Part shown: positions 6,120-58,090 of the stretch, one piece after another | Position numbering within the stretch: the stretch's first letter is position 1 | How the letters are laid out: each line of letters starts with the position of its first letter | From: an uncultured archaeon | GTDB taxonomy: Archaea > Aenigmatarchaeota > Aenigmatarchaeia > QMZP01 > QMZT01 | Direction: 5' to 3' | Length of the DNA: 64,000 bases | Assembly (NCBI GenBank): GCA_964447525.1 | Contig: CAYUSU010000001.1 | Coordinates: 26,012 to 90,011, forward strand | Notes under the pieces: model-generated | Told to the model about the DNA's origin: nothing | Seen by the model: only the letters and a program-made list of their open reading frames with translations | Databases searched by the model: none | Program-made: the position numbers and the translations under genes

Positions 6120-6152
6120 ATCCTTTTCTTGATCGGTGTGGTTAAAAAAAGT

Positions 6153-38994: not shown

Positions 38995-41592
38995 TTATTT
39001 TTTTGTCGCAAATCCGTAAAATACCATCACTGAGAATACCATGATCAATGCGATTCCCAGCATGTTAATCCCCGGGAATTCTGACGGAAGGGAAACGTCT
39101 ATGTTTATAATGTGGGTATCTTCCGGTACGGGTGGATTTTCTCCCGTGAGCCGTAGTCGATAAGGTTCTCCTTGGTTTATGTTCGCTCCCGCTATTTCCA
39201 CACTAATTGTCCTTTCTTCCTGACGGTTAAAAGTGGAGGTCCATTCTTGACCATAACCCAGCGTCTGGCCGTCAACGAGGAATTTGGCATATTGACCGAA
39301 CCCTCCTCCAAGCGAAACCGTTATCTGGGAATCCTGATTCAGTATGTTTCTTACCTTGACCGGAATGACGTAATGCGTTCCTATGGGAAGGTAAAGGTCA
39401 CCTGACTGGAATTCAGCGATAGGATGCTCGTAAAAGTATACGGTCCAGTATGCGTTAGGAGCCCCGGGCGGGCTGTATTCAAAGTTGTTCGGATCAGTCG
39501 ATTCAACGGAGTGTACCCAGAAATTCAGTTCCTTGTCTTGGCCTTGCGGATCTAATGTTATGTTGCAATACTGGCCAATTGTCAGGGAAGGAGGACATAC
39601 TCGTTGTTGCCATACCAGCCCCTGATTAGGACCTGTCAATGAATAATTAATAACAATATTAATTCCATATGGGTGTTTGCTTCTTACACTCAGATTTACA
39701 GGAGAATTTGCGGAAGTCACCCCCCCGCTTATCGGCACCTCTCCGTATTCGGTGAACACGCGCACGTCCGCGTATTTGGGGAAGAACACGGTCGTGCTCA
39801 CGTCTTCCAGATTACCCTTGTTTTCCTCGTTCCCTAACATGTCTCTGGATATCGTGCGGAAATAGAATGTATACATATCAACATCCTCCGGATTGGTCAT
39901 TCCCGCTAGGACAACAAGGTTTATATCATCATGCGATGTCGCTGAAGTGCATGTTCCAAGATCAGTCCACCCAACTACCTGCACGTCTTCTTCGTCAGTC
40001 ACCATGTACTGCAGGGTGTAGCAATCCACACCTATACCATCCGTTCCGTCATCGAGTTTCTGGTCATCCCCTTCCCACGCTAGATTATCAATCATCGTCT
40101 CCTCATAAAGATATTCTCTAAGTGGTGTTGTAATTGACGAAATTGGAGGAAGATCATCCACGACCACCCAGTCGCTTGCGTTCCTCGAAATGTCTTCTAC
40201 GGATACGTTGAAATGGACCGTGTGGTTGCCGTTTTGGACCGGAAGATTCCAGTCCGGTCTGGACCCTGTTAAGCATGGTTCCGAAGCCCACGCATCGCTA
40301 TCATTTTTCAGATAACATGTTTCGGTGAAGTCTGCTATATTGGTATATACAAGGTCAAGATTTACCGTGTAATCTTTAACATAATTAGGTAGTGTGTCCT
40401 GTATGTCAATGGTCGTTAAAAGCGTGGTCAGTGTGATGGTCCTGTTTGACGTGTTCACCTTCGTGTTCACATCGTCTTCCACGAAAACCGTGTAATTGTA
40501 GACAGCGAAAGGATTATTTGCGAGACCCGTAATTTCAGTGAAATAAAAGTTGTTATTCACGTCTATATTCCCGCCAAAAGAGAGCGTATGTCTCTTCTCG
40601 TCCGTTCCGTTCTGAAGGATTGCGTATACATCCTGTATAGCGAAAGATTTGTTGTAGACAGTCACGTTTATGAATAAACTGTTACCCATTGCAATCTGAT
40701 TGTTCGGAGGGGTGGGGTCTTCAAATGTCACGAGAAGGTCGGATACGATGGTGACCGATATTTCTCCGGTTTTCTTCTCCTGGCTTATGGTGTTATTTGC
40801 ATAAACCGTGAATGAATATGTACCACCCACCACCATTGAAGGCATTCCGGCTGCCGGGACGGTTATATGATAATAATAGGCATTCCCAATGTTGATACCG
40901 GGAGTAATGCTCTTGTTTATTTCTATCGGGTTTAGCGGGTCGCTTTTATCGATCCACCTGACCCATACCTTGTCAATCGGATGGGTGTCATTCACAACGC
41001 TTACGTTTATCACGAAGGCACTGGTTTCAATGTCCCCCCCGGGAGGGGTGGGGTCTTTAAAAGTAACGGTTCCGAATCCTATGGATTCGATCTTGCAACA
41101 TACCTTTGTATCGAAGGCTTCGCAGTTTCCCGCGTGTGCGTTTGTTGGTCCGCTTATCGAAGCCAGACAGGCGTCCCATCCATCGCAGTCATCCTCCTGA
41201 TAATCGCAGGATATATCACCATTACTTACGCTTATGTTAGCACCGACAGAATATCCAACCTCCGGTCCGTTTGTTTTTTCCACATGAGCATTTGTTTGAC
41301 CGGAAAGTTCAAGGAAGGTTACGTAATCATCAGCGTTGGTATTTCCCAGACTGTATGTATTGGAACCGCAGCAGAGCAAATTCGGATAATGCGGAGGATC
41401 AACTGAAGGGAGCTCTGCATGGCCTCCAGTATCCCGGGAAATTCTGAGCAGAATAACTTCCCCTTCCCCAGAACAGGTATCTTTAACCTCACATGTAAGG
41501 TCCGCCAAAACACCTGAAGAAACAGCTATGCTGGTGACCATGAAGGAAATAATCAAAATTATCATTGCCACTCTTGGGATATTGATATCCAT
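38995..41592 (-). CDS. 865-aa secreted surface glycoprotein with a Cys-rich N-domain, repeated beta-domains and a C-terminal TM anchor
   Basis: Sec signal peptide, duplicated SG(Q/P)TNAH motifs, two F(K/E)DPTPP-initiated domains, many N-x-S/T sequons, and a C-terminal hydrophobic helix plus KK. Confidence 0.7.
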   Translation of the reverse strand: MDINIPRVAMIILIISFMVTSIAVSSGVLADLTCEVKDTCSGEGEVILLRISRDTGGHAELPSVDPPHYPNLLCCGSNTYSLGNTNADDYVTFLELSGQTNAHVEKTNGPEVGYSVGANISVSNGDISCDYQEDDCDGWDACLASISGPTNAHAGNCEAFDTKVCCKIESIGFGTVTFKDPTPPGGDIETSAFVINVSVVNDTHPIDKVWVRWIDKSDPLNPIEINKSITPGINIGNAYYYHITVPAAGMPSMVVGGTYSFTVYANNTISQEKKTGEISVTIVSDLLVTFEDPTPPNNQIAMGNSLFINVTVYNKSFAIQDVYAILQNGTDEKRHTLSFGGNIDVNNNFYFTEITGLANNPFAVYNYTVFVEDDVNTKVNTSNRTITLTTLLTTIDIQDTLPNYVKDYTVNLDLVYTNIADFTETCYLKNDSDAWASEPCLTGSRPDWNLPVQNGNHTVHFNVSVEDISRNASDWVVVDDLPPISSITTPLREYLYEETMIDNLAWEGDDQKLDDGTDGIGVDCYTLQYMVTDEEDVQVVGWTDLGTCTSATSHDDINLVVLAGMTNPEDVDMYTFYFRTISRDMLGNEENKGNLEDVSTTVFFPKYADVRVFTEYGEVPISGGVTSANSPVNLSVRSKHPYGINIVINYSLTGPNQGLVWQQRVCPPSLTIGQYCNITLDPQGQDKELNFWVHSVESTDPNNFEYSPPGAPNAYWTVYFYEHPIAEFQSGDLYLPIGTHYVIPVKVRNILNQDSQITVSLGGGFGQYAKFLVDGQTLGYGQEWTSTFNRQEERTISVEIAGANINQGEPYRLRLTGENPPVPEDTHIINIDVSLPSEFPGINMLGIALIMVFSVMVFYGFATKK

Positions 41593-41674: not shown

Positions 41675-42190
41675 ATGGATAAGAAATCAAAGAACCTCAT
41701 GTTCGTGATTGTCGCCTTCGTCATAATAATTTTTATCGTTGCATTTTCTGTCGCCCAGTTCGGTTTAAACGGCATCACTCCCACCGGACAGTACACTGAT
41801 GGGAGCGATATTAACACGTTTGATGCTGCGGTATCAGGGAATGATATATCCCTTTGCGAAAGAATAAAGGACACGTCCATGAAACAGGCATGCACTGATA
41901 TTCTCAGCGTATCCGGGGAGCCCCCGACCGATGAACAGATTAACGATCAGAAATACTTTGATGACGCGATAACGAACAACGACATCTCCGGATGTGATAA
42001 AATAATTGATTCTTCCCTGAAACAGTCATGTAAAGACATGCTTTCGGTGCATGCGGAAGAACCCACGGAGGAGCAGAGGATGGACATACAGTATTTTGAC
42101 CAAGCCATTTCGCAGTCAGATTCTTCGTTCTGCGTTAAGATTACGGACGCCTCCCTGAAACAGGCATGCAATGATCTGCTTGGCGGATAG
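41675..42190 (+). CDS. membrane-anchored protein with three ~45-aa Cys-pair repeats
   Basis: N-terminal TM anchor, then 3 repeats of the pattern NDIS-C-..I.D.S(M/L)KQ(A/S)C.D(I/M)LSV...EPT(D/E)EQ...QYFD.AI. Confidence 0.6.
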   Translation: MDKKSKNLMFVIVAFVIIIFIVAFSVAQFGLNGITPTGQYTDGSDINTFDAAVSGNDISLCERIKDTSMKQACTDILSVSGEPPTDEQINDQKYFDDAITNNDISGCDKIIDSSLKQSCKDMLSVHAEEPTEEQRMDIQYFDQAISQSDSSFCVKITDASLKQACNDLLGG

Positions 42191-42258
42191 ATTTTATATT
42201 ATTTTCTTATCTGGTCAGTTTTTTCCTTCTGAAATGTTATTATATGAGATAGCACATA

Positions 42259-42286
42259 ATTATTAATAATCATCATTAATGATGAT
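42259..42286 (+). promoter_or_regulatory. two adjacent AT-rich palindromes (ATTATTAATAAT and ATCATCATTAATGATGAT) just upstream of the TATA-like TGTGTATATTTTTT and the wHTH regulator gene
   Basis: Perfect 12-bp and 18-bp palindromes at 42259..42270 and 42269..42286; TATA-like element at 42293..42304; ATG at 42313. Confidence 0.45.
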
Positions 42287-42312
42287 CAATTGTGTATATT
42301 TTTTGGGGTTGA

Positions 42313-42540
42313 ATGGGTAAGAAAAATCATAAAACATCGGAGAAGATATTGAAAATTCTGGTCAAACACGGATACGGCCTGACGATAGAGGAAGTATCCA
42401 ATTTTCTGAAAATAAACCGTTCTACAGCGTCCAAATATCTGGCCATTCTGGAGGCAAAGGAGCGAGTTCTTATACGCGAGGTCGGGAAGGCAAAGCTCCA
42501 CTACATAAAAAGCAGGGAGATGGAAAAATGTCTGAAATGA
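42313..42540 (+). CDS. small winged-helix transcriptional regulator (75 aa)
   Basis: The HTH-like LTIEEVSNFLKINRSTASKYLAILEAKERVL; its stop overlaps the start of the giant LamG gene (ATGA). Confidence 0.6.
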   Translation: MGKKNHKTSEKILKILVKHGYGLTIEEVSNFLKINRSTASKYLAILEAKERVLIREVGKAKLHYIKSREMEKCLK

Positions 42541-45500
42541 AATCCCAGTTCTCTTTCGGCGACAAGACCCAGATAAGTGCAATGTTTGTATTTTTGGTAT
42601 TAACGCTCGTCTTGATTTCATATGTTGTCATAAGTGCGGGCAACATAATCGTTACATTGGTAGCGCCACAGAACGAATCTACGGATGATGATGGTATCAT
42701 TGAATTCATTTCTAACTTGACCGATGATTTTGAGATTGTTAATGCCACTCTCTACACCAACATCTCCGGCTGGGCGGCAGAAGAGACCAGGTGGAACGGG
42801 GAGATACCCTACAACGACACGGGGCTCGTCCTCCTCCTGCATTTAAACAACGAATCGGCCTTCGGGGAGAACGATACCCACGTCTACGACTGGTCAGGGA
42901 ACGGGAACAACGGCACTTTCCAGGGAAACCCTGAATATAACGCTTCAGGCGTCTTCGGGGGCATGCTGGAATTATCGGGATCCGGAGATTATATCATGAT
43001 ACCAAACGGAATGAATACGCTGATGAACAATCTTTACAACTGGACCCTGCAGATGTGGATATATCCGACATCCGATGAAAGAAATCTCCTGGGAACCAGT
43101 GCAGGAGGTGAGTTCTGGATATGGGTCGGTGATAACTATGACATAGGATTCGACCAATACTTTGGAATGGATCCCAGCTACGTTGAAAACGTATCAAGCA
43201 CACCTGACTATGCGGTCCAGCCCGACCAGTGGAATCACCTTATAATAACCAGAAACGTAACGGATTTCAGGATATACAGGGACGGGCAGTTCTTTGCCAA
43301 TCTAACGTCGACCGAAACGAAAAACGGCAACTACGGGACCGACATGCAGATAGGAAGGTATGATTCGTCCAGCAGCAATGACTTTCAGGGATACATGGAC
43401 GAGGTAGCGATCTGGAACCGGACACTATCTTCTTCCGAGATTCAGGATTTATACAGCTATACCAAGACCAGCTTCTACCCCGTCTTCCAGAACAAGACGG
43501 TGAACGAAGGTTCATATGTGTGGAATGTGCTGGCTTTCGATAACGACAGCAGTTCAGATTGGTCAGAATCCAATTATACTTTCACCTACGATTCCTCCGG
43601 TCCGACAATACAACTTCCGTTTTACACCAACGCAACCAAGAAAAACAGTTCGGATTCTCTCACCCTCAACATGTCCGTCTCGGATTCTCTCACCCAGCCG
43701 GACACATGCCTTGTATACGTGGCGGGACAGTCCTCCAACCAGACCCTTTCGTATTCGAACGGCTGGTGCAACGGCTCAATCTCGCTTATGGATTCCAATC
43801 CGGGAAACTCCACCATCTATACTTACGCAAACGATACCCTCAACAACTGGGGACTGAACGATTCGTATGTGGTCTGGATTGCTGGCGCTCCTGTCACACC
43901 TACCCCAGAAATAAACTCCACCGACGGAACCAACCATTCTTCCCAGGACCTGAACTGCTTCGACACGATAACGGATCCTGATAGCGACAACCTTAACGTG
44001 ACGGTTCACTGGCACATGAACGGCGTCTTTAACGTGAGTTACGATTACAACGACAGCTATTCCAGCGGATACGACTTCGTTTCAACCCTCGGATCGGGAA
44101 ATACCTCAGTCGGACAGAGATGGAGCTGTTCTTTGAGATTATTCGACGGCAAAAATTATTCCAACTGGGGTAACTCCAGTAACCTGACCATAATATCAGA
44201 ATCGGATAACTTGATTGTTGTTTCCCTCACCAGCCCGGATGACGATTCCACTGGTACTGACGGAATAATCACCTTCATCTCCAATGTAACCGATGATAAC
44301 GAGGTAATCAATGCTACTTTGTACACAAACATATCAGGTCCATGGACAGCCGAGGAAACCCGTTGGAACGGGGAGATACCCTACAACGATACGGGGCTCG
44401 TCCTCCTCCTGCATTTAAACAACGAATCGGACTTCGGGGAGAACGATGGTCTTTTTTACGACTGGAGCGGAAACGGAAACAATGCTACAGGCACTGATAT
44501 GAACTACTCCGCAGGCAAGTTCGGATTTGGGCTTTACGGCGAAGGCGGTGATGACGGTACTAAGGATTTCCCTGTTGTTACCCAGACAGCCAGCCTTAAC
44601 GTGACCAATCTTACGATCATGGTCTGGGTTAAGATGAACTCTCTTAGCAAAGATAATTCATTAGTTGCGAACGACTGGTGGGGTCAGGGTGATGGCTATG
44701 GTTTATATTGGGATGCCGCTGATGAGGATTTTATATGGGACCCCAGAAACGGCACAATGTATTGCGGAGCCCTCTTGAGCGATTCTGTTTCCGTCCAGGA
44801 AGGAACATGGTACCATGTTGCAGTCACCCACAACAGGACCTCTGCCAGGATATACCTCAACGGAACAGAAGTGGGAAGCTACGACGACTATGATTGCATT
44901 ATCGGGTATGACGACTCTGACACATACATTGCAAGCTATAACAACTGGAACAGTTATCTTAACGGCTCAATAGACGAGGTGGCGATATTCAACCGGACGC
45001 TTTCCCAGTCCGAGATCCAGGACATATACAACTACACGAAAACAATTTTCTACCCCGTCTTCCAGAACAAGACGGTGAACGAAGGTTCATATGTGTGGAA
45101 TGTGCTGGCTTTCGATAACGACAGCAGTTCAGATTGGTCAGAATCCAATTATACTTTCACCTACGATTCCTCCGGTCCGACAATACAACTTCCGTTTTAC
45201 ACCAACGCAACCAAGAAAAGCGGCATGGATCCCCTCACACTTAACGTCTCTGTCTCGGATTCCATCACCCAGCCGGACACATGTTTAGTATATGTCTCAG
45301 GACAGTCTTCGAATCAGACTTTATCTTATTCCTCTGGTTGGTGTAATGGTTCGATTTCTCTTACGGATTCCAACCCCGGAAACTCAACCATATATGCCTA
45401 TGCCAATGACTCCGCCAACAACTGGGGACTTAACGATTCGTATGTGGTATGGATTGACAATACAGGGGAGAATTCTTGGCTGGAAGTAGAATTGATTACT

Positions 45501-46259
45501 CCGTTGGAAGGACTTAACGTTCCGCAGAACACGACCTTTACAGTTAATGCTACGGTGTATTGCAGAAACGAAACCTGCGGCAATATCACCGGAACGGTTA
45601 GATATAATGAATCATCGGCAAACCCTGATACTATCATAAGCACTACATCTGGGGACAATCCATTTTACATCATCAGCGAAGATAATCCGCAGAACTGTTC
45701 AACCAACCCTCTGGAGGAGGATGAGTATTGTAACATAACATGGACAGTTAATGCGACTGGAACCATAGGTTCAAACTACGAGATAGGTGTATTGTTCCAA
45801 TCCAACTACACGGGTGTGAGTGTAAATTATACCGGAAACAATACGGTCGAGATAGCTGACTGTTTTATAGACATTAGTCTTTATTGGAGTGCCGTGTCAT
45901 TCGGTTCATTGATCCCAGGTGAAAGAGGAAACGCTTCCGGTAATGATAATGACGAATATAACATTACGATAGAATCCACCACCTCCTGTAACATAGATTT
46001 GTACATTAACGGGACTGATATTGAAAATACGAGCCTCGGATATACCATAGGAGTGGGAAACGTGTCATGGAACAACGTTTCTAATGATTATGCATCTTCA
46101 TACTCTTTGAGCAATTCTTGGAATCCTGTAAAGAAAGTAGTTCCGCCATCCACGAACACGACTACATGGTATTGGCTGGATATGCCATGCTGCATAGCAT
46201 CCGGTTTCTATGAAGGATCGGTAGAAATAATGGGAATAAAGACCGGGGAGAGTCCTTAG
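42537..46259 (+). CDS. giant (~1240 aa) surface glycoprotein with two LamG/concanavalin-A-like lectin modules arranged as a ~1.6 kb tandem duplication
   Basis: Each LamG_3-like module ends with DEVAIWNRTLSSSEIQDLY or DEVAIFNRTLSQSEIQDIY, followed by a repeated YPVFQNKTVNEGSYVWNVLAFDND... domain. N-terminal signal/TM. More than 60 N-x-S/T sequons. The start is probably at 42537 (the track gives 42528). Confidence 0.8.
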   Translation: MKSQFSFGDKTQISAMFVFLVLTLVLISYVVISAGNIIVTLVAPQNESTDDDGIIEFISNLTDDFEIVNATLYTNISGWAAEETRWNGEIPYNDTGLVLLLHLNNESAFGENDTHVYDWSGNGNNGTFQGNPEYNASGVFGGMLELSGSGDYIMIPNGMNTLMNNLYNWTLQMWIYPTSDERNLLGTSAGGEFWIWVGDNYDIGFDQYFGMDPSYVENVSSTPDYAVQPDQWNHLIITRNVTDFRIYRDGQFFANLTSTETKNGNYGTDMQIGRYDSSSSNDFQGYMDEVAIWNRTLSSSEIQDLYSYTKTSFYPVFQNKTVNEGSYVWNVLAFDNDSSSDWSESNYTFTYDSSGPTIQLPFYTNATKKNSSDSLTLNMSVSDSLTQPDTCLVYVAGQSSNQTLSYSNGWCNGSISLMDSNPGNSTIYTYANDTLNNWGLNDSYVVWIAGAPVTPTPEINSTDGTNHSSQDLNCFDTITDPDSDNLNVTVHWHMNGVFNVSYDYNDSYSSGYDFVSTLGSGNTSVGQRWSCSLRLFDGKNYSNWGNSSNLTIISESDNLIVVSLTSPDDDSTGTDGIITFISNVTDDNEVINATLYTNISGPWTAEETRWNGEIPYNDTGLVLLLHLNNESDFGENDGLFYDWSGNGNNATGTDMNYSAGKFGFGLYGEGGDDGTKDFPVVTQTASLNVTNLTIMVWVKMNSLSKDNSLVANDWWGQGDGYGLYWDAADEDFIWDPRNGTMYCGALLSDSVSVQEGTWYHVAVTHNRTSARIYLNGTEVGSYDDYDCIIGYDDSDTYIASYNNWNSYLNGSIDEVAIFNRTLSQSEIQDIYNYTKTIFYPVFQNKTVNEGSYVWNVLAFDNDSSSDWSESNYTFTYDSSGPTIQLPFYTNATKKSGMDPLTLNVSVSDSITQPDTCLVYVSGQSSNQTLSYSSGWCNGSISLTDSNPGNSTIYAYANDSANNWGLNDSYVVWIDNTGENSWLEVELITPLEGLNVPQNTTFTVNATVYCRNETCGNITGTVRYNESSANPDTIISTTSGDNPFYIISEDNPQNCSTNPLEEDEYCNITWTVNATGTIGSNYEIGVLFQSNYTGVSVNYTGNNTVEIADCFIDISLYWSAVSFGSLIPGERGNASGNDNDEYNITIESTTSCNIDLYINGTDIENTSLGYTIGVGNVSWNNVSNDYASSYSLSNSWNPVKKVVPPSTNTTTWYWLDMPCCIASGFYEGSVEIMGIKTGESP
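42650..45480 (+). repeat. ~1.6-kb intragenic tandem duplication (LamG module plus following domain) with patches of perfect identity (43473..43644 = 45048..45219)
   Basis: The protein repeats align over ~500 aa. Nucleotide patches of 172 bp and ~90 bp are identical between otherwise diverged copies. Confidence 0.8.
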
Positions 46260-46268
46260 GGTGTAAAT

Positions 46269-47063
46269 ATGAAAATAAACACAAAAAAATTAATCACTTT
46301 GGTTTTCCTAGTGGTTGTTTTAAATATGATTATCACAACTTCTGCGGAGGCGAAGATATCACTCGGTTCTGTCACCGGGATGAATCATGCAGAAGTTGAA
46401 CCTGGGGATTCAGTGGAATTAAAAATCCTTCTGTTCAACATACACGAGAGTTCAACAATGATTGTGGATTTGAATGTAGAAAGCAAACCTGACGGATGGA
46501 ATGTTCGGATAGAACCGGAGAGGATAGAGTTGCCTTATACGATACCGTCCAAATATGTCGATCAGGAATCCGGTTATGAATATCTCAGCGTCCCTAATAC
46601 CGGTGAAATGATAAAAGTGATGCCCGTCGTCGCAAGTGTGAATGTCCCGTCGAATGCGGTACCCGGGGAATATTTTGTAAATATTGTGGCTTCTGCGAGA
46701 AAAACTGGAGGAGTGTTATCGGCAGCTCAGCGCAGGAATTTTGATTTCACTGTCAGGATTTTGGATGAATCTTACGACCATCAGACCAAGGCAAAAAGCA
46801 ATAATATACCCATGGGAGGCCTTTATTCCGATCCAGAGACGGAAAAGACAAATAAATTGGTTGGTGATGAAATAATAAACAAGACAGAAGAAAAACCAGA
46901 TGAAAATGTTACTAATATAATTAAAACCGATACGGAAGAGCGACCGGATCCTGAGCCTTTGTCTGGGATAACTGGAATGATGATTTCAAGCAGTTCGGTT
47001 GTTGCTGTATTCATGTGGTTGGTGGTAATAATAGTTATTATAAAGGTGAGGAGATCCAGATGA
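46269..47063 (+). CDS. secreted protein with a C-terminal TM anchor (S-layer/NEW3-like beta domain)
   Basis: Signal peptide MKINTKKLITLVFLVVVLNMIITTSAEA; C-terminal TM plus KVRRSR. Confidence 0.6.
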   Translation: MKINTKKLITLVFLVVVLNMIITTSAEAKISLGSVTGMNHAEVEPGDSVELKILLFNIHESSTMIVDLNVESKPDGWNVRIEPERIELPYTIPSKYVDQESGYEYLSVPNTGEMIKVMPVVASVNVPSNAVPGEYFVNIVASARKTGGVLSAAQRRNFDFTVRILDESYDHQTKAKSNNIPMGGLYSDPETEKTNKLVGDEIINKTEEKPDENVTNIIKTDTEERPDPEPLSGITGMMISSSSVVAVFMWLVVIIVIIKVRRSR

Positions 47064-48442
47064 ACAAAAGAATTATTGTGTTTTGCTTGTTGATGATATC
47101 CGTGTTCTTAGTGTTGTCCCCTGATTTTACCGGATGGCTGACGACCAGTGGCACGCTTAGAATAGGTTTCTCTGTCGCGCAAAAAACAGATATTTGCATA
47201 ACTATTTTAGAAATTCCGGTATCCGTTCCCAGATACCAGTCAACCAGCATTACCTTCTGGGTCGAGAACTGCGGTAATTCCCCGGCTTCCGGTAATCTGC
47301 ATATATACATAATGAATTCAAACAGCAACACCACATCAGCCCATCTGGTCAGAGAATTCCCGAACATAATCCCGCTAAAATCCGTCATCCTCGTGGAGCA
47401 GTTCATTGCGAGTTTCGGACCCGGTAATTACTGGATTTCTGTCGCCTACGAAATCAACGGAACAATGTATCCCGCTAAAAACCTTACCGAGACATTCAAT
47501 GTCGTCGCTTCTTACTGCATCCCCGGGGAGGTGAAATGTTCCGGAAATGACATAATCAAGTGTTCGATGTATGGTGACACATGGGACTATGTAATGACTT
47601 GCCCCTACGACTGTCTTAACGGGGGATGCGCCTTCCTGTCCGGTGGTGCTCCGCCACCAGTTGTCCAGGGAGAACCACTGACAGACGTTTACGTAGAATA
47701 TTCCCAGAACGTCAGCCTTAATCCCGGTATGGAATTCCCGCTGATCTTCAAGGTGATCAACATAGGTGACACGGATGTTATTGACCTCACACTGAGCCTT
47801 CGTTCCAACGAAATATTTTCGGAACTGGAATCGCAATTGATTTCGGAACTGGAAATCAACGAATCAGTGGTTTTCCTCGGAGAATTGTCTGTACCGGAAA
47901 ATATCGAAGAAGGAATATATTATGTCGATTGGGAACTGACTTCAACAAAATTAAATAAAACTGGAAAAATAATGGTGAACATAACGTACTCTACAATGAA
48001 ATACAAATCAGAAAATCTGATTTCGTATTACGATTATCTTATAGAATATGTCGATGAAGAGATAGCGGACGCAAAAAGGAACGGAAAGAACGTTTCCATT
48101 CCGATGGGTCACAGCAAGGACGCTAAATTCGAACTCGCTGTCGCGAAGGAGATGCACAGGTTGGGACTTTATGAAGAAGCTATCATGCAACTTGATTTAA
48201 CAAGAAAAAAGATAAAGGATATGGTCACTACCTTGGTAAGGGCTAAATTCCTAATGAGAGAAGAGAAACCCACTGAGATAACACCGGAACCGATAATAAT
48301 AGACATCGATACACGACTTATAGCAATAGCCGTGCTTATTGTGGGAATTTCGGTAGTGATTTTCATTGCGTACAAAAAATATCTGAAGAGAAAGATGCTC
48401 CTTAGTCCGGGTAAGTGGGAACCTTCTAAAATAAAATTATAA
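47060..48442 (+). CDS. secreted protein with a C-terminal TM anchor
   Basis: GGTGAGGAG RBS then the ATG at 47060 (MNKRIIVFCLLMISVFLVLS); C-terminal TM plus KKYLKRK. The 5' end overlaps the previous gene. Confidence 0.6.
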   Translation: MNKRIIVFCLLMISVFLVLSPDFTGWLTTSGTLRIGFSVAQKTDICITILEIPVSVPRYQSTSITFWVENCGNSPASGNLHIYIMNSNSNTTSAHLVREFPNIIPLKSVILVEQFIASFGPGNYWISVAYEINGTMYPAKNLTETFNVVASYCIPGEVKCSGNDIIKCSMYGDTWDYVMTCPYDCLNGGCAFLSGGAPPPVVQGEPLTDVYVEYSQNVSLNPGMEFPLIFKVINIGDTDVIDLTLSLRSNEIFSELESQLISELEINESVVFLGELSVPENIEEGIYYVDWELTSTKLNKTGKIMVNITYSTMKYKSENLISYYDYLIEYVDEEIADAKRNGKNVSIPMGHSKDAKFELAVAKEMHRLGLYEEAIMQLDLTRKKIKDMVTTLVRAKFLMREEKPTEITPEPIIIDIDTRLIAIAVLIVGISVVIFIAYKKYLKRKMLLSPGKWEPSKIKL

Positions 48443-48453
48443 AATCAAAAATA

Positions 48454-50841
48454 TCATTCGAGAACTAACGGGCTCGCTTCATGATACGTGTTCATCCTTT
48501 CTTCAATCTCTGAAACTTTCTTTTTTATCGGTCCTAATCTGTGGTTCTTACCCTTTATGTCGTCAAGTTTAATTTTTATTTTTTCTATGTCCGTTGCCAT
48601 ATCCAAAAAATCCTCTGAATCCTGCGATTGCGCTGTTTGGTCACCCCTTGGGTCGTCTTCCAGAATTTCTTTCATGTTTTCTACCCTTTCTTTCATATCT
48701 TTCCCGGATTCCATTATCCTTTCACCCAATAAATTATCTATCTGACTTTTTTCGGTTTTTATCTCTTTTGCTACCCTTTCCAGATCTTCATTGAGAATTT
48801 CAAATCTCTTCTGGTAATCAGTTACCATGTCATTGACGAATTCCTTTACCTTCTCCTTGAAATCCTTAATGTCCCTCGTTTTTTCGTTTATTACTGATCT
48901 GAACTTTTCTTGATCTGCTTTTGTCTGTGTAATGAGATCATTGGATACCTTCAGAAGCTTGTTTTTTATATCATCGCTGAAATTCTTTTGTCTATTTTCC
49001 ATGTCCCGGAATCTTTTTTCGTAAGAATTAATGTTATCTATCGCATTTGCTATTTCACTCATTGTTGATTTCTTTTCGTTTCTAAGGATATTTACTTTAT
49101 CTTCGATGTCATTCTCAGTTTGTGCCCTCAGCCTGAATATATCATCCTTGGTTTCCTTTATCTTCATGTCCATGTCGGAAACCATGTTCTTAAGCTGCTC
49201 GATAACCTCCAATTTCCCTCTGTCGTAATCCTTGCTCCATTTCATCTCTTCGAATTCGCCGATGATGCCAGAAAGTGAATTTTCCATTTCGTTTATCTTT
49301 ATTTGAAGATCGTTTACCGTTCTTCTGTTTATGTTCGGACTCTGTATTTCCAGCTTGCTGATCCTGTCTTCAAGTGTTTTCATAGACGTTGCTATCATCT
49401 TTACATCCTTCCACGCGCCGTCCTTCATCATCTTTTCCTGATTCAATTCCCCTGTAAGACCGGCTACCTTGGAATTGAGGTCGAATACTGCCTGTTTGAT
49501 GTTACTGAAACCTTTGAGCTTACCAAGATCTATATCCTCTTTCAGTTTCATCTTACCAAACTCATTTTTCATGTCAGATATCTGCATTTCCACCTCTGTT
49601 TTGAAATTGCCAAAGTTGTTTACAATCTCCTTTATTACATCTCTTTTCGTGTCCATTTCGTTTATTTTGATTTTCATCCCTTCGACAATACCCTCGAAAT
49701 CATCAATCTTGCCAAGACCCATTTTAAGGTCATCCATTGATCCTTTAACATCCATTATCTCCTGAAGCTTACCTGAAAGGTCAGTTACTTTCCTTTCCAG
49801 ATCAGATACACGTTTCTCATTCCTCGTTTCGGTTTCCTTCATCTTGTTTATGACCCGTTCGATCATTTTCATCAGGTCTTCCTTTGTTTTTTTGGTTTTG
49901 ATCGCGTCTACCCCTTCCTTTAGTTTGAGATCTTCTATCTCTTTTTTCAGATCCCTGATGGAATTTTCGGTGTTCTTGATTTTATCTAGATGATCATTGA
50001 TTTCCCTTTCACCTTCCTTTAGTTTGAATATTCTTTCGTCAAGCTCATTTTTCATCCTGTTAAGAACCTCGCCGGATTTATTGGATCTGAGCCACTCTTC
50101 ATTATCGTTTTTCATCCGTTCTATTCCTACCAGAAGGTTTTTCAGTTCTTCCTTGGTTTTTTCTACATTGTCTTTCCCGCTAACCTTTTTTATTTCCGTG
50201 CTCAGATCAGCAAGCTTTTTTGCAACATCTGATCTGAATTTCATATCCCTCATGCTCTCGGAAGGACGTTTTGAAGCCTTTGCATTTATTTCAATCTTGG
50301 CCATATGCTCAAAAACAGAATTTTTCATCTTCCCTAAACCAGCTATTTCCTTTTCATTTTTTTTGATTGATTTTTCAAGAGAATTTAATCTTGAAATTGA
50401 CATAATGTTCTTTTTGGTGTTCATCTTTTCTTCCATTTTCTTGATGTTTTCCTTCACCGAAAGAACTTCCGTGACCTTCTTTTCAAGATTGTTCTTCACG
50501 TCATCTATTTGGTTTCTGATATCAACCTTGAACTTCTCAAAATCATCAGATTTCCCGGAACCAACCCTTACATCAAGATCATCGATATGTTTTTCAAAAG
50601 AAGCTAATTTTTCTGATATCCCATTGGTTTGGTTTTTCGTGAGATCATTTTCCGTTTTCAGATCTTTTATTTTGTTTCCGACCTCTGCCCTGAACTTCAG
50701 ATCATTCATGCTGTCAGGGGACTTACCGGGGGATTTTTCTAGTTTTTCCTCTAATCTTGATACCCTTCTGGCAGTATCCATTTTAAGGTTTTCCAGTTCA
50801 CTGGTTAATTCCTTCAGCGTCTGAGCTATAGGCTTCATCAA
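48454..50841 (-). CDS. large K/E-rich coiled-coil protein (6th and last gene of the coiled-coil array; 795 aa)
   Basis: Essentially continuous heptad-like K/E/D/L/I/N composition with no enzymatic motifs; translationally coupled to the upstream gene. Confidence 0.65.
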   Translation of the reverse strand: MMKPIAQTLKELTSELENLKMDTARRVSRLEEKLEKSPGKSPDSMNDLKFRAEVGNKIKDLKTENDLTKNQTNGISEKLASFEKHIDDLDVRVGSGKSDDFEKFKVDIRNQIDDVKNNLEKKVTEVLSVKENIKKMEEKMNTKKNIMSISRLNSLEKSIKKNEKEIAGLGKMKNSVFEHMAKIEINAKASKRPSESMRDMKFRSDVAKKLADLSTEIKKVSGKDNVEKTKEELKNLLVGIERMKNDNEEWLRSNKSGEVLNRMKNELDERIFKLKEGEREINDHLDKIKNTENSIRDLKKEIEDLKLKEGVDAIKTKKTKEDLMKMIERVINKMKETETRNEKRVSDLERKVTDLSGKLQEIMDVKGSMDDLKMGLGKIDDFEGIVEGMKIKINEMDTKRDVIKEIVNNFGNFKTEVEMQISDMKNEFGKMKLKEDIDLGKLKGFSNIKQAVFDLNSKVAGLTGELNQEKMMKDGAWKDVKMIATSMKTLEDRISKLEIQSPNINRRTVNDLQIKINEMENSLSGIIGEFEEMKWSKDYDRGKLEVIEQLKNMVSDMDMKIKETKDDIFRLRAQTENDIEDKVNILRNEKKSTMSEIANAIDNINSYEKRFRDMENRQKNFSDDIKNKLLKVSNDLITQTKADQEKFRSVINEKTRDIKDFKEKVKEFVNDMVTDYQKRFEILNEDLERVAKEIKTEKSQIDNLLGERIMESGKDMKERVENMKEILEDDPRGDQTAQSQDSEDFLDMATDIEKIKIKLDDIKGKNHRLGPIKKKVSEIEERMNTYHEASPLVLE

Positions 50842-51574
50842 TATCTCCTATCTTTTCTTTCAGGTCGCTTATTCCCGCCCTGACGGATTCGACCTCTTTC
50901 TTTATCTCATTTTTAAAGTCTTCCAGATCGGTAAAAGCTTCCTTGATCAGTTCATCACCTTCGGGGAATCCTCTTTCATTGATGAATGCCAAACCCTTTT
51001 CCAATGCTTGCATTCTGGCATCGATATTATCTATTTTCTGTGTGTGGCCTTCAAGGAAAGTCAGTCTGGAATCCATTGTGTTTGAGACCCTTGCTATCTC
51101 CTGAACTATCTTACTTTTCTCAAGTTTGAATTCTTTGACCCTTTCCATTACCTGCTTTGATATTATAGAAAGAGATTCAGTTGTGCTTAATTCCGCATTA
51201 TATTTTTGTATCGCTTTTTTTATTTCCGATATTTTATTTCCTATTTCCCTTTGTGATGATCTTAGTTTGTCAAAATTATCAATGGTAGATTTGAGTTCTC
51301 TATTAAAATTGGTTTCGTTCCGTTTTAACGAAGTAATGTCATTCCGCGTGTCAACGAATCTGTCCTCAACCTTATTGAAAGTCTTCCTTACCCTTTCGTC
51401 TATCCTTATGAACTTATCAATGTCAAGACCTTCTTTGTGTTTTCTTAGCGATCTCATCTCTTCCAGAACATCATTAACAATATTCTCAAGTCTCGTTATC
51501 CTCTTGTCTGCAAGTTTCCTCTCTTCCTTCATTGCCTTTATCCCTTCGAGTATTCTCATTCCTATTTCGTTCAT
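50798..51574 (-). CDS. K/E-rich coiled-coil protein (5th of array; 258 aa)
   Basis: The N-terminus MNEIGMRILEGIKAMKEERKLADKRITRLENIVNDVLEEMR is paralogous to that of the 4th gene. Confidence 0.65.
   Translation of the reverse strand: MNEIGMRILEGIKAMKEERKLADKRITRLENIVNDVLEEMRSLRKHKEGLDIDKFIRIDERVRKTFNKVEDRFVDTRNDITSLKRNETNFNRELKSTIDNFDKLRSSQREIGNKISEIKKAIQKYNAELSTTESLSIISKQVMERVKEFKLEKSKIVQEIARVSNTMDSRLTFLEGHTQKIDNIDARMQALEKGLAFINERGFPEGDELIKEAFTDLEDFKNEIKKEVESVRAGISDLKEKIGDIDEAYSSDAEGINQ
51450..51543 (-). repeat. 94-bp perfect direct repeat shared with 51943..52036 (5' ends of two adjacent coiled-coil genes)
   Basis: Compared base by base; encodes the shared KLADKRITRLENIVNDVLEEMR. Confidence 0.8.
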
Positions 51575-52125
51575 TACCTTTCCAACTCCTTAAGGATATC
51601 CTTGAGAACCTTTTCAGCTTCCATTTCCTTTTGTTTTTTTGCTTTGTCTATCTCCGGTTTCATTTTTTTCCTCACTTCTTTTTCCTTTTCAGCGATTCCT
51701 TTCTTCAGCGTTATGACCTTCTTTTTAATTTCCTCAGATTCTTTCCCCTTCTTTGCTATCTTATTTTCCATTTCCTTTCTGATTTCAGTATCCTTGGTCA
51801 CGACCTTCTTCAGTTTGGTTACATTAGCTTTCATCCTCTTTTTTTCTCTGTCTTTTTCTGACATGTCTCTTTCCATTTTTTTCATTCTAACGCTGATTTC
51901 TTTGTAATTATCATCTATTTTTGCCATCTTTTCAGAAATTATTCTCATCTCTTCCAGAACATCATTAACAATATTCTCAAGTCTCGTTATCCTCTTGTCT
52001 GCAAGTTTCCTCTCTTCCTTCATTGCCTTTATCCCTGAGGTTATTTTCATCGCAAGCTCATTCATCAGTTTCCAGCTCCTTGAGTATGTTCTTGAGAATT
52101 TTTTCAGAATCCTTTTCTTCATCAT
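51574..52125 (-). CDS. K/E-rich coiled-coil protein (4th of array; 183 aa)
   Basis: The N-terminus MNELAMKITSGIKAMKEERKLADKRITRLENIVNDVLEEMR shares a 94-bp perfect DNA repeat with the 5th gene. Confidence 0.6.
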   Translation of the reverse strand: MMKKRILKKFSRTYSRSWKLMNELAMKITSGIKAMKEERKLADKRITRLENIVNDVLEEMRIISEKMAKIDDNYKEISVRMKKMERDMSEKDREKKRMKANVTKLKKVVTKDTEIRKEMENKIAKKGKESEEIKKKVITLKKGIAEKEKEVRKKMKPEIDKAKKQKEMEAEKVLKDILKELER

Positions 52126-53674
52126 TTCTTGTTTTTTTAAGTTTCTCTTCCATGTTATCGAGCTTTAGATTGAATGCCATTTCCATGGCCTTTGACCTGT
52201 CACTCATTTTCTTTAGTCCGGAGTTCAGTTCCCTTATTTCATTTTCCAGTACCTTCATGCTCCCAACGTTACCCACCAGTTCCGTTTGCCTGTTTCTCAG
52301 GACCCCTACCACGGAACTGGCTTCATTCACTTTTCCTTCAATCCTTTTCAGTTCCTTGAGCCAGTATTCCCTTTCCTTTAGGAATTGCTGCATCTTGATC
52401 ATTATATCCTTCTCGAATTTTTCTACTTCTGCTTTTTTGTCTGACAGGCCGCTGTTTATTTTTACCGTGTGATCATCCATTCTTCTTTCTACAGCGTTCA
52501 TCTTGCCATTAACGAAATCCTTTGTCATCTCCATTTCATTTTTCAGAGTGTTTATGGTTTGCTCGGTTTCATGCGCTTTTGATATCATATCACTCGTGTC
52601 AGATTCCGTTCTTTTTGCGAATTCATTGACGTAATCCGACATTTGTTCTGCCTTGTTCAATATGTTGGATACCTGTTCTTTGTGCTTCTCCAGCCGGTCC
52701 TTCACCCTGTATTCCAGCGATCCGAAATTCTTTTTATGTTCGATCATGTCCGCCTTTATTTCCTCGATCTTATCGTTGAGATCCTTCTTCTCATCCAGCA
52801 CCCTTTCCAGTTCCACGTAAACCTTTTCTTTTATAACCTTTGTTTCACTTATCAAATTGTCACGTAAATTGAGAAGATCATTTTTAAGATTTTCGTGAGG
52901 GTTATTTGCGCTGTGCAGCTCTTCGTTGAGTCTTTCGATTTTTTTGTCGATAATGAACTGGCTGTTGTATACCTTTGTGAAGGATTTTTTTATCGATTCG
53001 AACGTTTCCTTAAGTTTTTTGTGATCACTTTCGGATTTATTTTCCCTGTTCTTCAATTCCTTTATGTCCAGAGAAATATTTTCCAACTTTCTGGCATTCT
53101 TACCGATTGAAGATAATTCCGATTCAACGGATTCCCTGATCTTTTCAACATCCGCTTCCGTGCTGCCGTCTTCCTTTTTCAGCGCCTCGATCTCGGATGA
53201 GATTTTTTTTATGAATTCGGAATTCTTCCCGATTGAAGATAATTCCGAATTTATCATGCTCTTGATTTTGACGGTGTCGATGTCTTTTTCTTTGTTTTTG
53301 TTTTTCAGCGCTTCGATCTTGGAATAAATATCATTTATCTTATCTGTATTTTCCTTCATTGAAGAGATCCCGGATTCAATCGATCCTTTTAGTTTCATTA
53401 AACCGCTTTCTGATGTCTTGTCTTCCGCCTTAAGCCCCTTCAGTTCAAGTAAAACATCATTTATCAAATCGGATTTTTTCCCAATCGATTTTTCATTTTT
53501 TTTCATTCCCCTGATCTCGATAGAGAGATTATCTATCATTGCAGCCTGTTTTTCGATTTTTACCATCATCTCCTTGGTGAGGCTTTCATAACTATTTTTC
53601 CATTCGTCCCTCTCCTTCTTGAGTTGATCTATTTTTTCCCCAACTAACTGGAATTTGCCGTCCATGCTATTCAC
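52058..53674 (-). CDS. large K/E-rich coiled-coil protein (3rd of array; 538 aa)
   Basis: Coiled-coil composition with repeated SSIGKN...ALK(K/N) modules. Confidence 0.65.
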   Translation of the reverse strand: MNSMDGKFQLVGEKIDQLKKERDEWKNSYESLTKEMMVKIEKQAAMIDNLSIEIRGMKKNEKSIGKKSDLINDVLLELKGLKAEDKTSESGLMKLKGSIESGISSMKENTDKINDIYSKIEALKNKNKEKDIDTVKIKSMINSELSSIGKNSEFIKKISSEIEALKKEDGSTEADVEKIRESVESELSSIGKNARKLENISLDIKELKNRENKSESDHKKLKETFESIKKSFTKVYNSQFIIDKKIERLNEELHSANNPHENLKNDLLNLRDNLISETKVIKEKVYVELERVLDEKKDLNDKIEEIKADMIEHKKNFGSLEYRVKDRLEKHKEQVSNILNKAEQMSDYVNEFAKRTESDTSDMISKAHETEQTINTLKNEMEMTKDFVNGKMNAVERRMDDHTVKINSGLSDKKAEVEKFEKDIMIKMQQFLKEREYWLKELKRIEGKVNEASSVVGVLRNRQTELVGNVGSMKVLENEIRELNSGLKKMSDRSKAMEMAFNLKLDNMEEKLKKTRNDEEKDSEKILKNILKELETDE

Positions 53675-56063: not shown

Positions 56064-58090
56064 ATATTTTTCAGCTCCTTCAGAATCTCGTTAATCTGGG
56101 CTTTCTGTCTTTTTGAACTTTCCATGAGCTCCTTTCTTTCCAGCAGGCTCTGTGTGACCACGTTATCAAATTGACCTTTGAGCATCTTCATGTTTTCGTT
56201 GACCTTTGAAATCTTATCGTTCATATCATCGATATCCTTCTTGTTCTTATTGGTGTCCTTACCGAGACCACTGAGGAAATCGAGACCCTTGTTTATTCCG
56301 TTTATCTGAGTGATCATATCCCTCTTTTCTCTCACAGCGTCGCCTTTTATTTCATTTATAACGGTCTTCAGATCATCTATTTCCGTCGTCTTTTCACTGG
56401 TTTTTTCAACGTGGTCTTTCATCTGGAGGAGAGATCTTACCGTACCCTGAAGGTCTTCTATGTCATTCTTCATATCCTTCAGGTATTCTTTCACGTTTAA
56501 CTGCGAGTCGTTGAATTTTTCTATTTTCGTTTCGAATTTGTTTAGCTGGTTGCCGAACATCTTTATTGATGGGTTGGCCAGATCCTCCAGCTGTGATATC
56601 CTGGACTCAACGGAGTCTATGCTGTCCTTGTTGTTTTCGGTTTTCTTTTCGAATATCTTTTCCATGTCATTAAGTTTCGCATCAACGTTTTCCTTGAACT
56701 TGTAGTTTATGACCTCTTCCGCATCCCTCGTAAAATTCTTCCTTTCTTCCTCAAAATCATTTATCCTTTCTTCCATCTTCCCGATCTGGTCATCCATTAG
56801 CTGGATCGTAGGTCTGACATAATTCTCCATTTTCGTTATTTTCGAAACCATCTCGTTAACCTGTTCCTTGGCGATGATAAGGTTCTTTGTTGATTTGTCC
56901 TCAAGTTCATTGAATCTGGCAGCAGAAAAATCCTCGAAAAGATTCTTTACGTCTTCCTTCATGGATTTATTGACATATTCCCGGACTTTGCCAATCTTCT
57001 CGACAAATTCCTTCTTCATTTCCTTGGAAAATTCCTTCTGTTCATCGATCAGGTCCTTGATGTGGGTATCTTTTTCGTTGAGGGTTTCGATTATTTTTTT
57101 ATTTTCCTTTTCCTTGTCTGAAGAGTCTTCCTTTATTTTTCCTATCTCTTTGAGCCCGGCCTTTATTTTCGAAACCTCGTTCATGGTCGTTGACATCTTC
57201 TTGTTGAGGGATGCTAGAACTTCCTTTATCTTACCGACATTATTGTACAGCGGCATTACTTGGATGTCCAGTTTTTTCGTTATTTCTTTTGGTATAATAT
57301 TATTCGATATTTCGTTTGCCGATAAAACAAGCTTGTTCAGCTTTTCTATGTTTTCCGCCCCGAACTTCTCGTTAAGGAAATCAAGCCTTTCTTCCATGTT
57401 GGCAAGCTTGCTCATTTCCTTTGTCTGATCTTTTAGCCTGATGAATTTGGATTCGGATGATTCTTTGAATTCATCCAGATCACTCTTTAACTTTCTCAGA
57501 GAATTCTTTACTTCTATGAGATCATCCTTGAAATCCATCGTTTCCCCGAATGCCGATAATCCCTTTGAAACGTCTTCCCCGCCGCTGGTTGGAATATTGG
57601 GCGGTGCCGTTAACTTTTCGCTCATTTCTTTGAGAGCTGATTCTATAGAACCAATCTTTTCGTCAGTGGATTCCTGCAGCTTTGAAACGATTTTTTTAAC
57701 ATTATCACCACCAGCGCCCTTCTCGGCACTTTTTACTTTTTCACCCAACTGAGAAATAGCACCTGTTATTGCCTTGATCTGATCATTAAATTTCTTTTCG
57801 ACATTGTCAAGCATTGGTTGAACATTCTGAACGGGTTGCGACTGGATAGGTGATTTTTCCGGGAGGTTTGCCGCAGGAGCGGAAGAAATTTCATCTATTA
57901 CGCTGGCAAGGTCTTCTTTCTCGCTTTCGAGTTTTTTTATTTTTTTCTTTTGTTCTTCAAGTTCATTTTTCGCATCGTCTTTACCAGAAGCCTTTTCTAT
58001 TTCCTCGTCTAGATCATTGATACCTTCAAGACCTTTTTCTTGATCAGCCATGGACACCCCCCTCGTATTTCGTATGACAGCTTGGCTCAA
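56060..58090 (-). CDS. large K/E-rich coiled-coil protein (1st of array; ~660 aa)
   Basis: The probable start is the ATG at 58051 (MADQEKGL), preceded by GAGGGGGGTG; the track start at 58090 is TTG. It has its own promoter-like region upstream. Confidence 0.65.
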   Translation of the reverse strand: MSQAVIRNTRGVSMADQEKGLEGINDLDEEIEKASGKDDAKNELEEQKKKIKKLESEKEDLASVIDEISSAPAANLPEKSPIQSQPVQNVQPMLDNVEKKFNDQIKAITGAISQLGEKVKSAEKGAGGDNVKKIVSKLQESTDEKIGSIESALKEMSEKLTAPPNIPTSGGEDVSKGLSAFGETMDFKDDLIEVKNSLRKLKSDLDEFKESSESKFIRLKDQTKEMSKLANMEERLDFLNEKFGAENIEKLNKLVLSANEISNNIIPKEITKKLDIQVMPLYNNVGKIKEVLASLNKKMSTTMNEVSKIKAGLKEIGKIKEDSSDKEKENKKIIETLNEKDTHIKDLIDEQKEFSKEMKKEFVEKIGKVREYVNKSMKEDVKNLFEDFSAARFNELEDKSTKNLIIAKEQVNEMVSKITKMENYVRPTIQLMDDQIGKMEERINDFEEERKNFTRDAEEVINYKFKENVDAKLNDMEKIFEKKTENNKDSIDSVESRISQLEDLANPSIKMFGNQLNKFETKIEKFNDSQLNVKEYLKDMKNDIEDLQGTVRSLLQMKDHVEKTSEKTTEIDDLKTVINEIKGDAVREKRDMITQINGINKGLDFLSGLGKDTNKNKKDIDDMNDKISKVNENMKMLKGQFDNVVTQSLLERKELMESSKRQKAQINEILKELKNI

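Follow-up and report, generated by a model that had tools for sequence, protein, structure and literature searches.

A 64,000-nucleotide (nt) stretch of DNA from an uncultured Aenigmatarchaeota archaeon (contig CAYUSU010000001.1; the whole stretch is referred to below as the window) carries a small gene for a winged helix-turn-helix protein that overlaps the start of a giant gene for a LamG-type surface glycoprotein. Our analysis indicates that this locus is probably an autoregulated adhesin operon, headed by the winged-helix regulator with a tandem operator; the four genes of this envelope operon encode the winged helix, the LamG giant and two further proteins, g264 and g475. Giant LamG-type surface proteins are the usual suspects in host recognition by DPANN archaea, and no regulation of such giants is known to have been reported. 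The locus offers a testable regulatory unit, consisting of a 75-amino-acid protein, a 25-bp tandem operator and natural versions in which regulator and giant are either fused or split. The elements at its head, in window coordinates, are as follows.

42237–42245, forward strand: TATA-like element TTATTATAT and putative core promoter element, in a block conserved in the alignment and some 12 nt ahead of box 1
42259–42270, no strand assigned: predicted operator box 1, ATTATTAATAAT, with two symmetric mismatches to the family consensus ATCATTAATGAT
42272–42283, no strand assigned: predicted operator box 2, ATCATTAATGAT, a perfect consensus match and the core of an 18-nt palindrome at 42269–42286
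42305–42309, forward strand: GGGGT, a putative Shine–Dalgarno-like element 4 nt before the winged-helix ATG, with similar GGGG(T) upstream of homologues
42313–42540, forward strand: 75-amino-acid winged helix-turn-helix protein, predicted autoregulator (Pfam, AlphaFold2, Foldseek and homologue alignment)
42515–42519, forward strand: GGGAG, an internal Shine–Dalgarno-like element in the 3′ end of the winged-helix gene, 8 nt before ATG 42528
42528–46259, forward strand: 1243-amino-acid N-terminally anchored LamG glycoprotein, with an alternative start at ATG 42537, in the −1 frame relative to the winged-helix gene

The original prediction, made from the sequence alone, had placed a 75-amino-acid winged-helix gene at 42313–42540, and profile searches and structure modelling bore this out. 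The protein scores above the Pfam cut-offs for HTH_11 (25.3 versus 25 bits) and HTH_24 (24.2 versus 21.9), and its AlphaFold2 model, built on a 27-member family alignment with a predicted local distance difference test (pLDDT) score of 85, has the canonical H1–H2–H3–wing order and a short C-terminal helix (helices at residues 3–19, 25–32 and 36–48; strands at 52–57 and 60–65). Foldseek neighbours of the model are ArsR/SmtB, HlyU, NolR and MarR proteins at a template modelling score of about 0.7, and the modelling indicates that the protein is a winged helix-turn-helix DNA-binding fold. The recognition helix is invariant across the family (R-x-TAS-K-YLA...GKAK-HY). The protein lacks a membrane helix and terminates at a stop codon at 42538–42540. 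No curated family emerged above threshold in NCBIfam or in a PDB sequence search: membership of ArsR/SmtB, Lrs14 and Sta1 was rejected on NCBIfam scores (HTH_metalloreg 19.7 versus 55, Lrs14 16.2 versus 90 and Sta1 22.3 versus 80), as was TrmB/ArsR membership on Pfam scores (TrmB 18.9 versus 25.6, HTH_5 17.2 versus 22). Small archaeal winged-helix regulators have a palindromic AT-rich operator over the core promoter, as is predicted here, and autoregulation is common among them. The 75-amino-acid protein shares the fold of Lrs14, Sta1, ArsR/SmtB-like and TrmB proteins but scores far below their family cut-offs, is shorter, has neither dimerisation helices nor metal sites, and belongs to a family that alone among them is linked in the genome to giant membrane proteins.

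The spacer between the stop codon of the upstream gene g171 (42190) and the winged-helix ATG at 42313 is 122 nt long and holds both of the palindromes that had been described earlier as adjacent and perfect, ATTATTAATAAT at 42259–42270 and ATCATCATTAATGATGAT (18 nt) at 42269–42286, which overlap by 2 nt. Both are present, but they are really one 12-bp box in two copies, 13 nt apart from start to start, and they are not significant in the window itself: 14 of 100 shuffles matched the 18-mer with three mismatches allowed, and 46 of 100 matched the 12-mer with one. Their significance comes from comparison with relatives only, never from the window alone. We therefore rely on a family search with the 75-amino-acid protein followed by scans of genome and metagenome contigs, which gave 46 loci, 38 of them non-redundant, with boxes counted in the 150 nt upstream of winged-helix genes (5.7 kb in total) and in 365 kb of flanking sequence. 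At no more than one mismatch, the consensus ATCATTAATGAT occurred 25 times in the upstream 5.7 kb versus 4 times in the flanks; it stood upstream in 21 of the 38 non-redundant loci versus 2 of 273 AT-rich control windows, usually as a doublet or triplet whose members start exactly 13 nt apart. A search for pairs at this spacing found 16 upstream of winged-helix genes and 0 elsewhere. An unbiased de novo count of 8-mers recovered the identical motif with 40–140-fold enrichment, and in the closest relative (loci L003/L005, from an Aenigmatarchaeota metagenome-assembled genome) the boxes are kept while the remaining spacer has diverged. Because the box is present in 21 of 38 loci versus 2 of 273 controls, we regard it as a family-wide operator rather than AT-rich noise, and the assignment of the two palindromes to box 1 and box 2 of this operator is strongly supported by the sequence comparison. 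A conserved cis-element in the regulator's own promoter thus co-occurs with the regulator across genomes, the pattern looked for in an operon with a cognate operator.

That the palindromes might instead have arisen by chance in AT-rich sequence, form an RNA hairpin or terminate transcription of the gene upstream is barely credible. The shuffles of the window and a run of six T residues at 42298–42303 would suit such a reading, but the comparative data contradict it: the box is enriched approximately 400-fold and keeps its exact 13-nt spacing across loci whose winged helices are only 45–60% identical, and it is the sequence itself that is conserved, not pairing through compensatory changes. A search for an RNA element or terminator returned a fold z-score of −0.05 and no Rfam match. 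The objection that such palindromes are ordinary against an AT-rich background accordingly holds for the window alone and fails once relatives are compared. As for a wider regulon, no second tandem box was found in the 64-kb window, and the 365 kb that flank the related loci gave no tandem pairs. The window holds just one isolated box at one mismatch, ATCATTAATTAT at 2539–2550, which lies in the first codons of a minus-strand open reading frame (835–2556) and is probably there by chance.

The order of TATA-like element followed by boxes recurs in five other loci (L005, L006, L007, L009 and L015), and transcription would start near 42267, between the boxes and about 26 nt past the TATA centre. 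In the mechanism we favour, the 75-amino-acid protein would bind both 12-bp boxes (ATTATTAATAAT and ATCATTAATGAT), probably as dimers. The boxes lie between the TATA-like element and the start codon and span the predicted transcription start, and the bound regulator would control its own gene together with the genes coupled to it. This geometry suggests negative autoregulation, with repression more likely than activation, through a block of RNA polymerase recruitment, which is how archaeal repressors usually act.

The giant gene overlaps the winged-helix gene by 13 nt if it starts at ATG 42528 or by 4 nt if it starts at ATG 42537. The ATGA stop/start overlap first proposed does exist at the latter, but the upstream in-frame ATG at 42528 is better conserved in relatives. 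Conservation among split loci extends to the overlap itself, the start codon of the second gene and a GGAG(G) in the 3′ end of the winged-helix gene. The internal GGGAG indicates a putative translational coupling of the winged-helix and giant genes, and with the overlap it implies that the two products would be made together. It is very improbable that the split is instead a fused gene decaying through a frameshift, or that a programmed −1 frameshift yields a fused winged-helix–giant protein. The giant open reading frame does lie in the −1 frame of the winged-helix gene, that frame is open across most of the winged-helix gene in the window, and a GAAAAAT run stands at the junction; but the run of A residues is not conserved (GGAAAGATGG in L006, GGAGAAATGG in L007 and GAGGCATGG in L015), the −1 frame of L015 has a stop two codons before the ATG, and the stop codon, start codon and internal Shine–Dalgarno-like element are conserved in at least six lineages. 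Programmed frameshifting was rejected for want of a conserved slippery sequence.

Read from ATG 42528, the giant protein comprises 1243 amino acids and ends at 46259, in agreement with the LamG/ConA-like protein of approximately 1240 residues that had been anticipated. PF13385 (Laminin_G_3) matches two stretches of it (E = 8e-46), scoring 156.3 bits where the Pfam gathering threshold is 27.6, which places it by profile in the Laminin_G_3/concanavalin A-like lectin superfamily. From the fused relatives described below and the distribution of N-x-S/T sequons we infer that the short N-terminal tail is cytoplasmic and the rest extracellular. There are 77 sequons, where more than 60 had been claimed, versus 27.9 ± 4.7 in composition-matched shuffles, with 0 in the N-tail or membrane helix; by topology and sequon excess the protein qualifies as a predicted archaeal N-glycosylated surface protein. 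Judged by its family, this heavily N-glycosylation-prone giant is most likely a carbohydrate-binding adhesin. It would be anchored by one N-terminal helix and expose an ectodomain of two old units, each of immunoglobulin (Ig)-like, LamG and Ig-like domains, followed by a conserved C-terminal domain. Its segments are as follows.

Residues 1–42: N-tail and membrane helix
Residues 16–38 (42573–42641, forward strand): single N-terminal transmembrane helix, from a hydropathy scan
Residues 43–130: segment A1, Ig-like domain and first LamG strands
Residues 131–285 (42918–43382): segment B1, LamG core
Residues 286–461: segment C1
Residues 462–560: segment D, about 100 amino acids
Residues 561–654: segment A2
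Residues 655–807 (44490–44948): segment B2, LamG core
Residues 808–984: segment C2
Residues 985–1243 (45480–46256, forward strand): C-terminal domain E, 259 amino acids, all-beta and Cys-rich

Giant proteins that are linked to winged helices but otherwise differ have a conserved domain E at their C-terminus; a structure model of it (pLDDT 48) was unusable. A role in host recognition has been proposed for the LamG surface proteins of DPANN archaea, and in the parts of the reports on Mia14 and nanohaloarchaea considered here (PMC10266531, PMC5498576) multiple Laminin_G_3 domains likewise occur in large, strain-specific, membrane-bound proteins with this proposed role. Unlike in our locus, no dedicated regulator, operator or regulator fusion is described in those parts. 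A further difference is that the N-terminal anchor and the C-terminal domain here are conserved and enclose interchangeable inserts of several kinds, of which the LamG units are one.

Several points weigh against an autoregulated adhesin operon, beyond the ordinary appearance of the palindromes in the window alone. Ten of the 38 loci have no box even at two mismatches, and the TATA assignment is uncertain in AT-rich DNA. The winged helix in the window is a separate soluble protein whose contact with the giant protein is an assumption, ligand binding by LamG is assumed from the family name, and the tandem order of the two units of the giant rests on one metagenome assembly.

The regulated surface lectin or adhesin module of the original prediction survives in its parts, a winged helix, a palindromic operator and a coupled LamG glycoprotein, but a fusion of the winged helix in many relatives had been overlooked, and this changes what the coupling is likely to mean. 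In approximately 13 loci (L008, L011, L012, L014, L020, L024–26, L028, L029, L032/33 and L038) an in-frame fusion joins the winged helix by way of a basic linker to one membrane helix, at residues about 78–114, and then to a giant ectodomain, with DNA-binding domain and membrane helix in one polypeptide of up to 1892 amino acids (L012, 1724 amino acids; L032, 1892; L024, 934; and others). Fused forms make up one coherent clade plus one separate case, so that sequencing errors do not explain them. Among 1.84 billion representatives, a profile search returned 139 clusters at E ≤ 1e-10, mostly of 60–100 amino acids, with top matches that include proteins of 2119 and 2054 amino acids having a membrane helix directly after the winged helix. 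The linker of fused forms and the tail of split forms are visibly homologous (EKKWTKLDNLKSSCG versus EKWLK / MKSQFSFG), and the ectodomains of family members have unrelated folds (LamG, RCC1 propeller, right-handed beta-helix, PQQ propeller or MG2) or are unrecognisable. The family is centred on Aenigmatarchaeota (DPANN).

Transcription regulators tethered to the membrane are recognised as a class in both bacteria and archaea, and by the published definition a transmembrane transcription regulator carries its DNA-binding domain together with one or more transmembrane helices on a single polypeptide (PMC10269533). By this definition the fused relatives are, judged on sequence, single-pass transmembrane transcription regulators; the protein in the window falls outside it, with its winged helix and membrane helix on separate polypeptides. 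Given the fused relatives, the window would therefore hold a split member of a transmembrane-transcription-regulator-like family. Like ToxR, TcpP and CadC in bacteria and ArnR in Sulfolobus, the fused relatives have an N-terminal DNA-binding domain in the cytoplasm, connected by a single membrane helix to a domain outside it, and, as in that class, their predicted target site lies in their own promoter region. They differ from these regulators in that the winged helix is minimal (65 amino acids), of no curated family and neither OmpR-type nor ArnR-type, and in that the ectodomains are giant (to more than 2000 amino acids), adhesin-like and of many folds; in the window, moreover, regulator and membrane protein are separate overlapping genes. 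A full-text literature search found no description of a minimal winged helix with a tandem 12-bp operator and a giant adhesin-like ectodomain, and this combination appears undescribed, whereas the LamG protein class and membrane-tethered regulators are already known.

These fusions hint that cell-surface or host-contact proteins may be controlled by a switch linked to the membrane, and they suggest that the ectodomain may signal to the regulator. The locus could thus be a split, membrane-coupled sensor, a possibility to which we give a clear minority of the weight, in which the ectodomain would sense a ligand such as host surface glycans and, by way of the membrane helix and short cytoplasmic tail, would sequester or release the free winged helix, as a two-piece version of ToxR or CadC. 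Repeated in-frame fusions of winged helix, membrane helix and ectodomain in relatives, the homology of fused linker and split tail, and a strictly conserved overlap that ensures co-synthesis would all fit, as would the low synonymous divergence of the N-tail (proportion of synonymous differences, pS, 0.38) and ectodomain folds that vary as those of sensor domains do (LamG, RCC1, beta-helix, PQQ propeller, MG2). However, the cytoplasmic tail in the window is only about 15 residues long, fusion may reflect co-regulation alone, and the ectodomains are adhesin-like, unlike known sensor domains. The geometry of the boxes also differs between fused and split clades, and the two forms may therefore not work alike.

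In the fused clade (L012, L029, L032, L038, L008, L025 and L026) the boxes end 34–85 nt before the ATG, and a TATA-like (A/T)TATATA lies 8–10 nt past them. The split clade has its TATA-like element ahead of the boxes, which end 0–33 nt before the ATG (Mann–Whitney p = 3e-4 for the box-to-ATG distance, with clades that are not independent of one another). These arrangements may be activator-like and repressor-like, respectively. A broader and speculative proposal, which we hold only tentatively, is that a DPANN-wide family of membrane-linked winged helices, either fused or translationally coupled to hypervariable giant ectodomains, directly couples recognition of host or substrate surfaces to the transcription of surface-protein operons, with split forms as repressors and fused forms as ToxR-like activators; the roles so proposed rest on the boxes lying downstream of the TATA element in the split clade and just upstream of it in the fused clade.

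Linkage of the winged helix to membrane giants is not universal, because at two loci (L010:7250- and L047:1365-, the former with boxes) the homologue is followed by a 473-amino-acid soluble protein and no membrane giant. At L035 a gene ending in domain E (6002–6802) stands directly upstream of the winged-helix gene (6986–7219), and winged-helix/giant modules may stand in tandem there. Another class of giant archaeal surface proteins (P0006, P0013 and P0029) has a different, helical cytoplasmic N-terminal domain of about 90 amino acids, then a membrane helix, and ectodomains with repeats of the C-type Ig-like domain found in the giant protein; this N-terminal domain is labelled 'sigma24 family' by one source and has no Pfam match.

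Within the predicted adhesin operon, the giant gene itself is internally repeated, with the following features.

42654–44207, forward strand: repeat unit 1, segments A1, B1, C1 and D, with Laminin_G_3 at about 42822–43460
44208–45479, forward strand: repeat unit 2, segments A2, B2 and C2, with Laminin_G_3 at about 44394–45035
43473–43644 and 45048–45219, forward strand: perfect 172-bp patch, candidate gene-conversion tract, offset 1575
42792–42858 and 44364–44430, forward strand: 67-bp patch with one mismatch

The original prediction had described a 1.6-kb tandem duplication of a LamG-plus-second-domain unit, with perfect patches of 172 and about 90 bp inside copies otherwise 75–80% identical, as a signature of gene conversion. 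Two units with offsets of 1572–1575 nt (a 1.57-kb repeat) are real, but unit 1 contains an extra domain D of about 100 amino acids that unit 2 lacks. The 172-bp repeat is exact, whereas the second patch is 67 bp with one mismatch, and identity elsewhere is lower than stated: approximately 72% at the nucleotide level in the flanks outside the patches and approximately 42% in the LamG cores (21–29% in amino acids). A recent tandem duplication was rejected, as pS between the units is 0.66–0.70 outside the perfect tract (synonymous divergence, dS, 1.6–2.0), equal to the divergence between the window and its orthologue in another species, L003. Synonymous sites outside the perfect patches are near saturation, non-synonymous divergence (dN) is about 0.9 in the LamG cores and 0.1–0.2 in the flanks, and the two cores have diverged from one another no less than unrelated LamG domains have. 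The 172 identical bases, 58 codons without a synonymous change inside an approximately 72% identical segment, form a tract far longer than the surrounding divergence predicts, which is the mark of gene conversion, and they fit a recent event, although an assembler that collapsed two near-identical copies might give the same picture. Short gene-conversion tracts would be the best reading of the perfect patches, but on a duplication that is old and whose flanks are near saturation.

Copy number, which the original prediction had proposed to compare across strains, does vary among relatives. The L003 orthologue has one unit without D and comprises 720 amino acids, a 523-amino-acid difference that equals the extra unit, and its LamG core resembles neither core in the window; L004 carries A-B-C-D three times. 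Because this Ig–LamG–Ig–D unit occurs three times in L004, we regard the structure as an old modular repeat of variable copy number. Among bacterial Ig-repeat surface proteins, repeat-containing adhesins are homogenised by gene conversion. The giant resembles these in its varying copy number (1, 2 or 3) and in having perfect identity tracts inside diverged repeats, but differs in that its units are old (dS about 1.6–2) and its cores have diverged as far as unrelated LamG domains while the flanks stayed similar. No donors of the LamG cores were found in the window or the fetched loci, and the best database matches are 32–35% identical. A diversity-generating retroelement was rejected, the cores differing along their whole length with many indels; the repeat search showed no template/variable pair that differs at adenines and lacks indels, and reverse transcriptase genes were not searched systematically. 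A segment comprising the first LamG strands, ETRWNGEIPYNDTGLVLLLHLNNE (42822–42917 and 44394–44489), is 60–85% identical across many otherwise unrelated DPANN LamG proteins, with LamG cores behind it that are not conserved, and it could be a recombination anchor for core swapping.

It is improbable that the two-unit structure or its perfect patches are an assembly artefact, produced either by joining strain alleles through the repeat or by collapsing near-identical copies (bubble popping). The contig that holds the window was indeed assembled from a metagenome, only one unit is present in the closest relative, which differs by exactly those 523 amino acids, and the exact 1243-amino-acid product is not on record in other assemblies (the cluster look-up came without names). 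However, an assembly path that left the 172-bp repeat, ran through D-A2-B2 and returned to it would require the D-A2 and C2-E junctions to be real, no junction breaks the reading frame, and L004 has the unit three times in A-B-C-D order. In addition, unit 1 is matched at 100% identity by two other contigs, which end at or inside the repeats: Logan contig L001 stops exactly at 42858, the end of a 40-nt perfect run, and the second at 43556, which is 84 nt inside the 172-bp tract. Such end points would be expected of repeats that are truly present in the genome. These contigs may, however, come from related samples.

Around the winged-helix and giant genes lie further genes for envelope proteins.

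41675–42190, forward strand: g171, a small N-terminally membrane-anchored protein with three Cys-containing repeats of about 46 amino acids, its stop codon followed by a T6 run at 42219–42224
46269–47063, forward strand: g264, a secreted protein with an NPCBM_assoc/CARDB-like domain and a C-terminal membrane anchor, starting 9 nt past the giant stop
47060–48442, forward strand: g475, an envelope protein with membrane helices at both its N- and its C-terminus, with an ATGA overlap with the g264 stop and GGTGAGGAG before its start

The block of g865 (on the minus strand), g171, winged helix, giant, g264 and g475, whose proteins are all membrane-anchored or secreted, is syntenic in L003/L005, L007 and L027, with 53–85% identity between orthologues of the window and L003. 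At this same site the giant has one LamG unit in L003, an RCC1 propeller in L007 and only D in L027, in keeping with the rapid evolution that had been proposed for the locus, whereas the N-terminal anchor and domain E are common to all of these giants and that of the window. The locus therefore keeps the ends of its adhesin and exchanges the middle, rebuilding it between relatives at one syntenic site, and this is the pattern expected of a host-range determinant. The gene g171 lies directly upstream of the winged-helix gene in L003, L007, L006 and L027, and each of its repeats carries an S-[LM]-K-Q-[SA]-C motif; the g171 protein has no Pfam or NCBIfam match. Divergently transcribed from it is the 865-amino-acid protein (38995–41592, minus strand), which has an N-terminal signal or anchor, a C-terminal membrane anchor and no family match, is 29–61% identical in syntenic relatives and is possibly an S-layer-type envelope protein.

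Elsewhere in the window, two further giant predicted surface proteins are encoded on the minus strand at 6881–11182 (1432 amino acids, VWA-like) and 60079–63828 (1248 amino acids, NPCBM_assoc), with neither a winged-helix gene nor boxes near them. A run of long coiled-coil proteins (795, 258, 183, 538, 798 and 676 amino acids) occupies 48454–58090 on the minus strand; it shows a strongly skewed strand composition, and its matches, which are to SMC/Rad50 and an archaea-specific SMC-related protein, are all weak.

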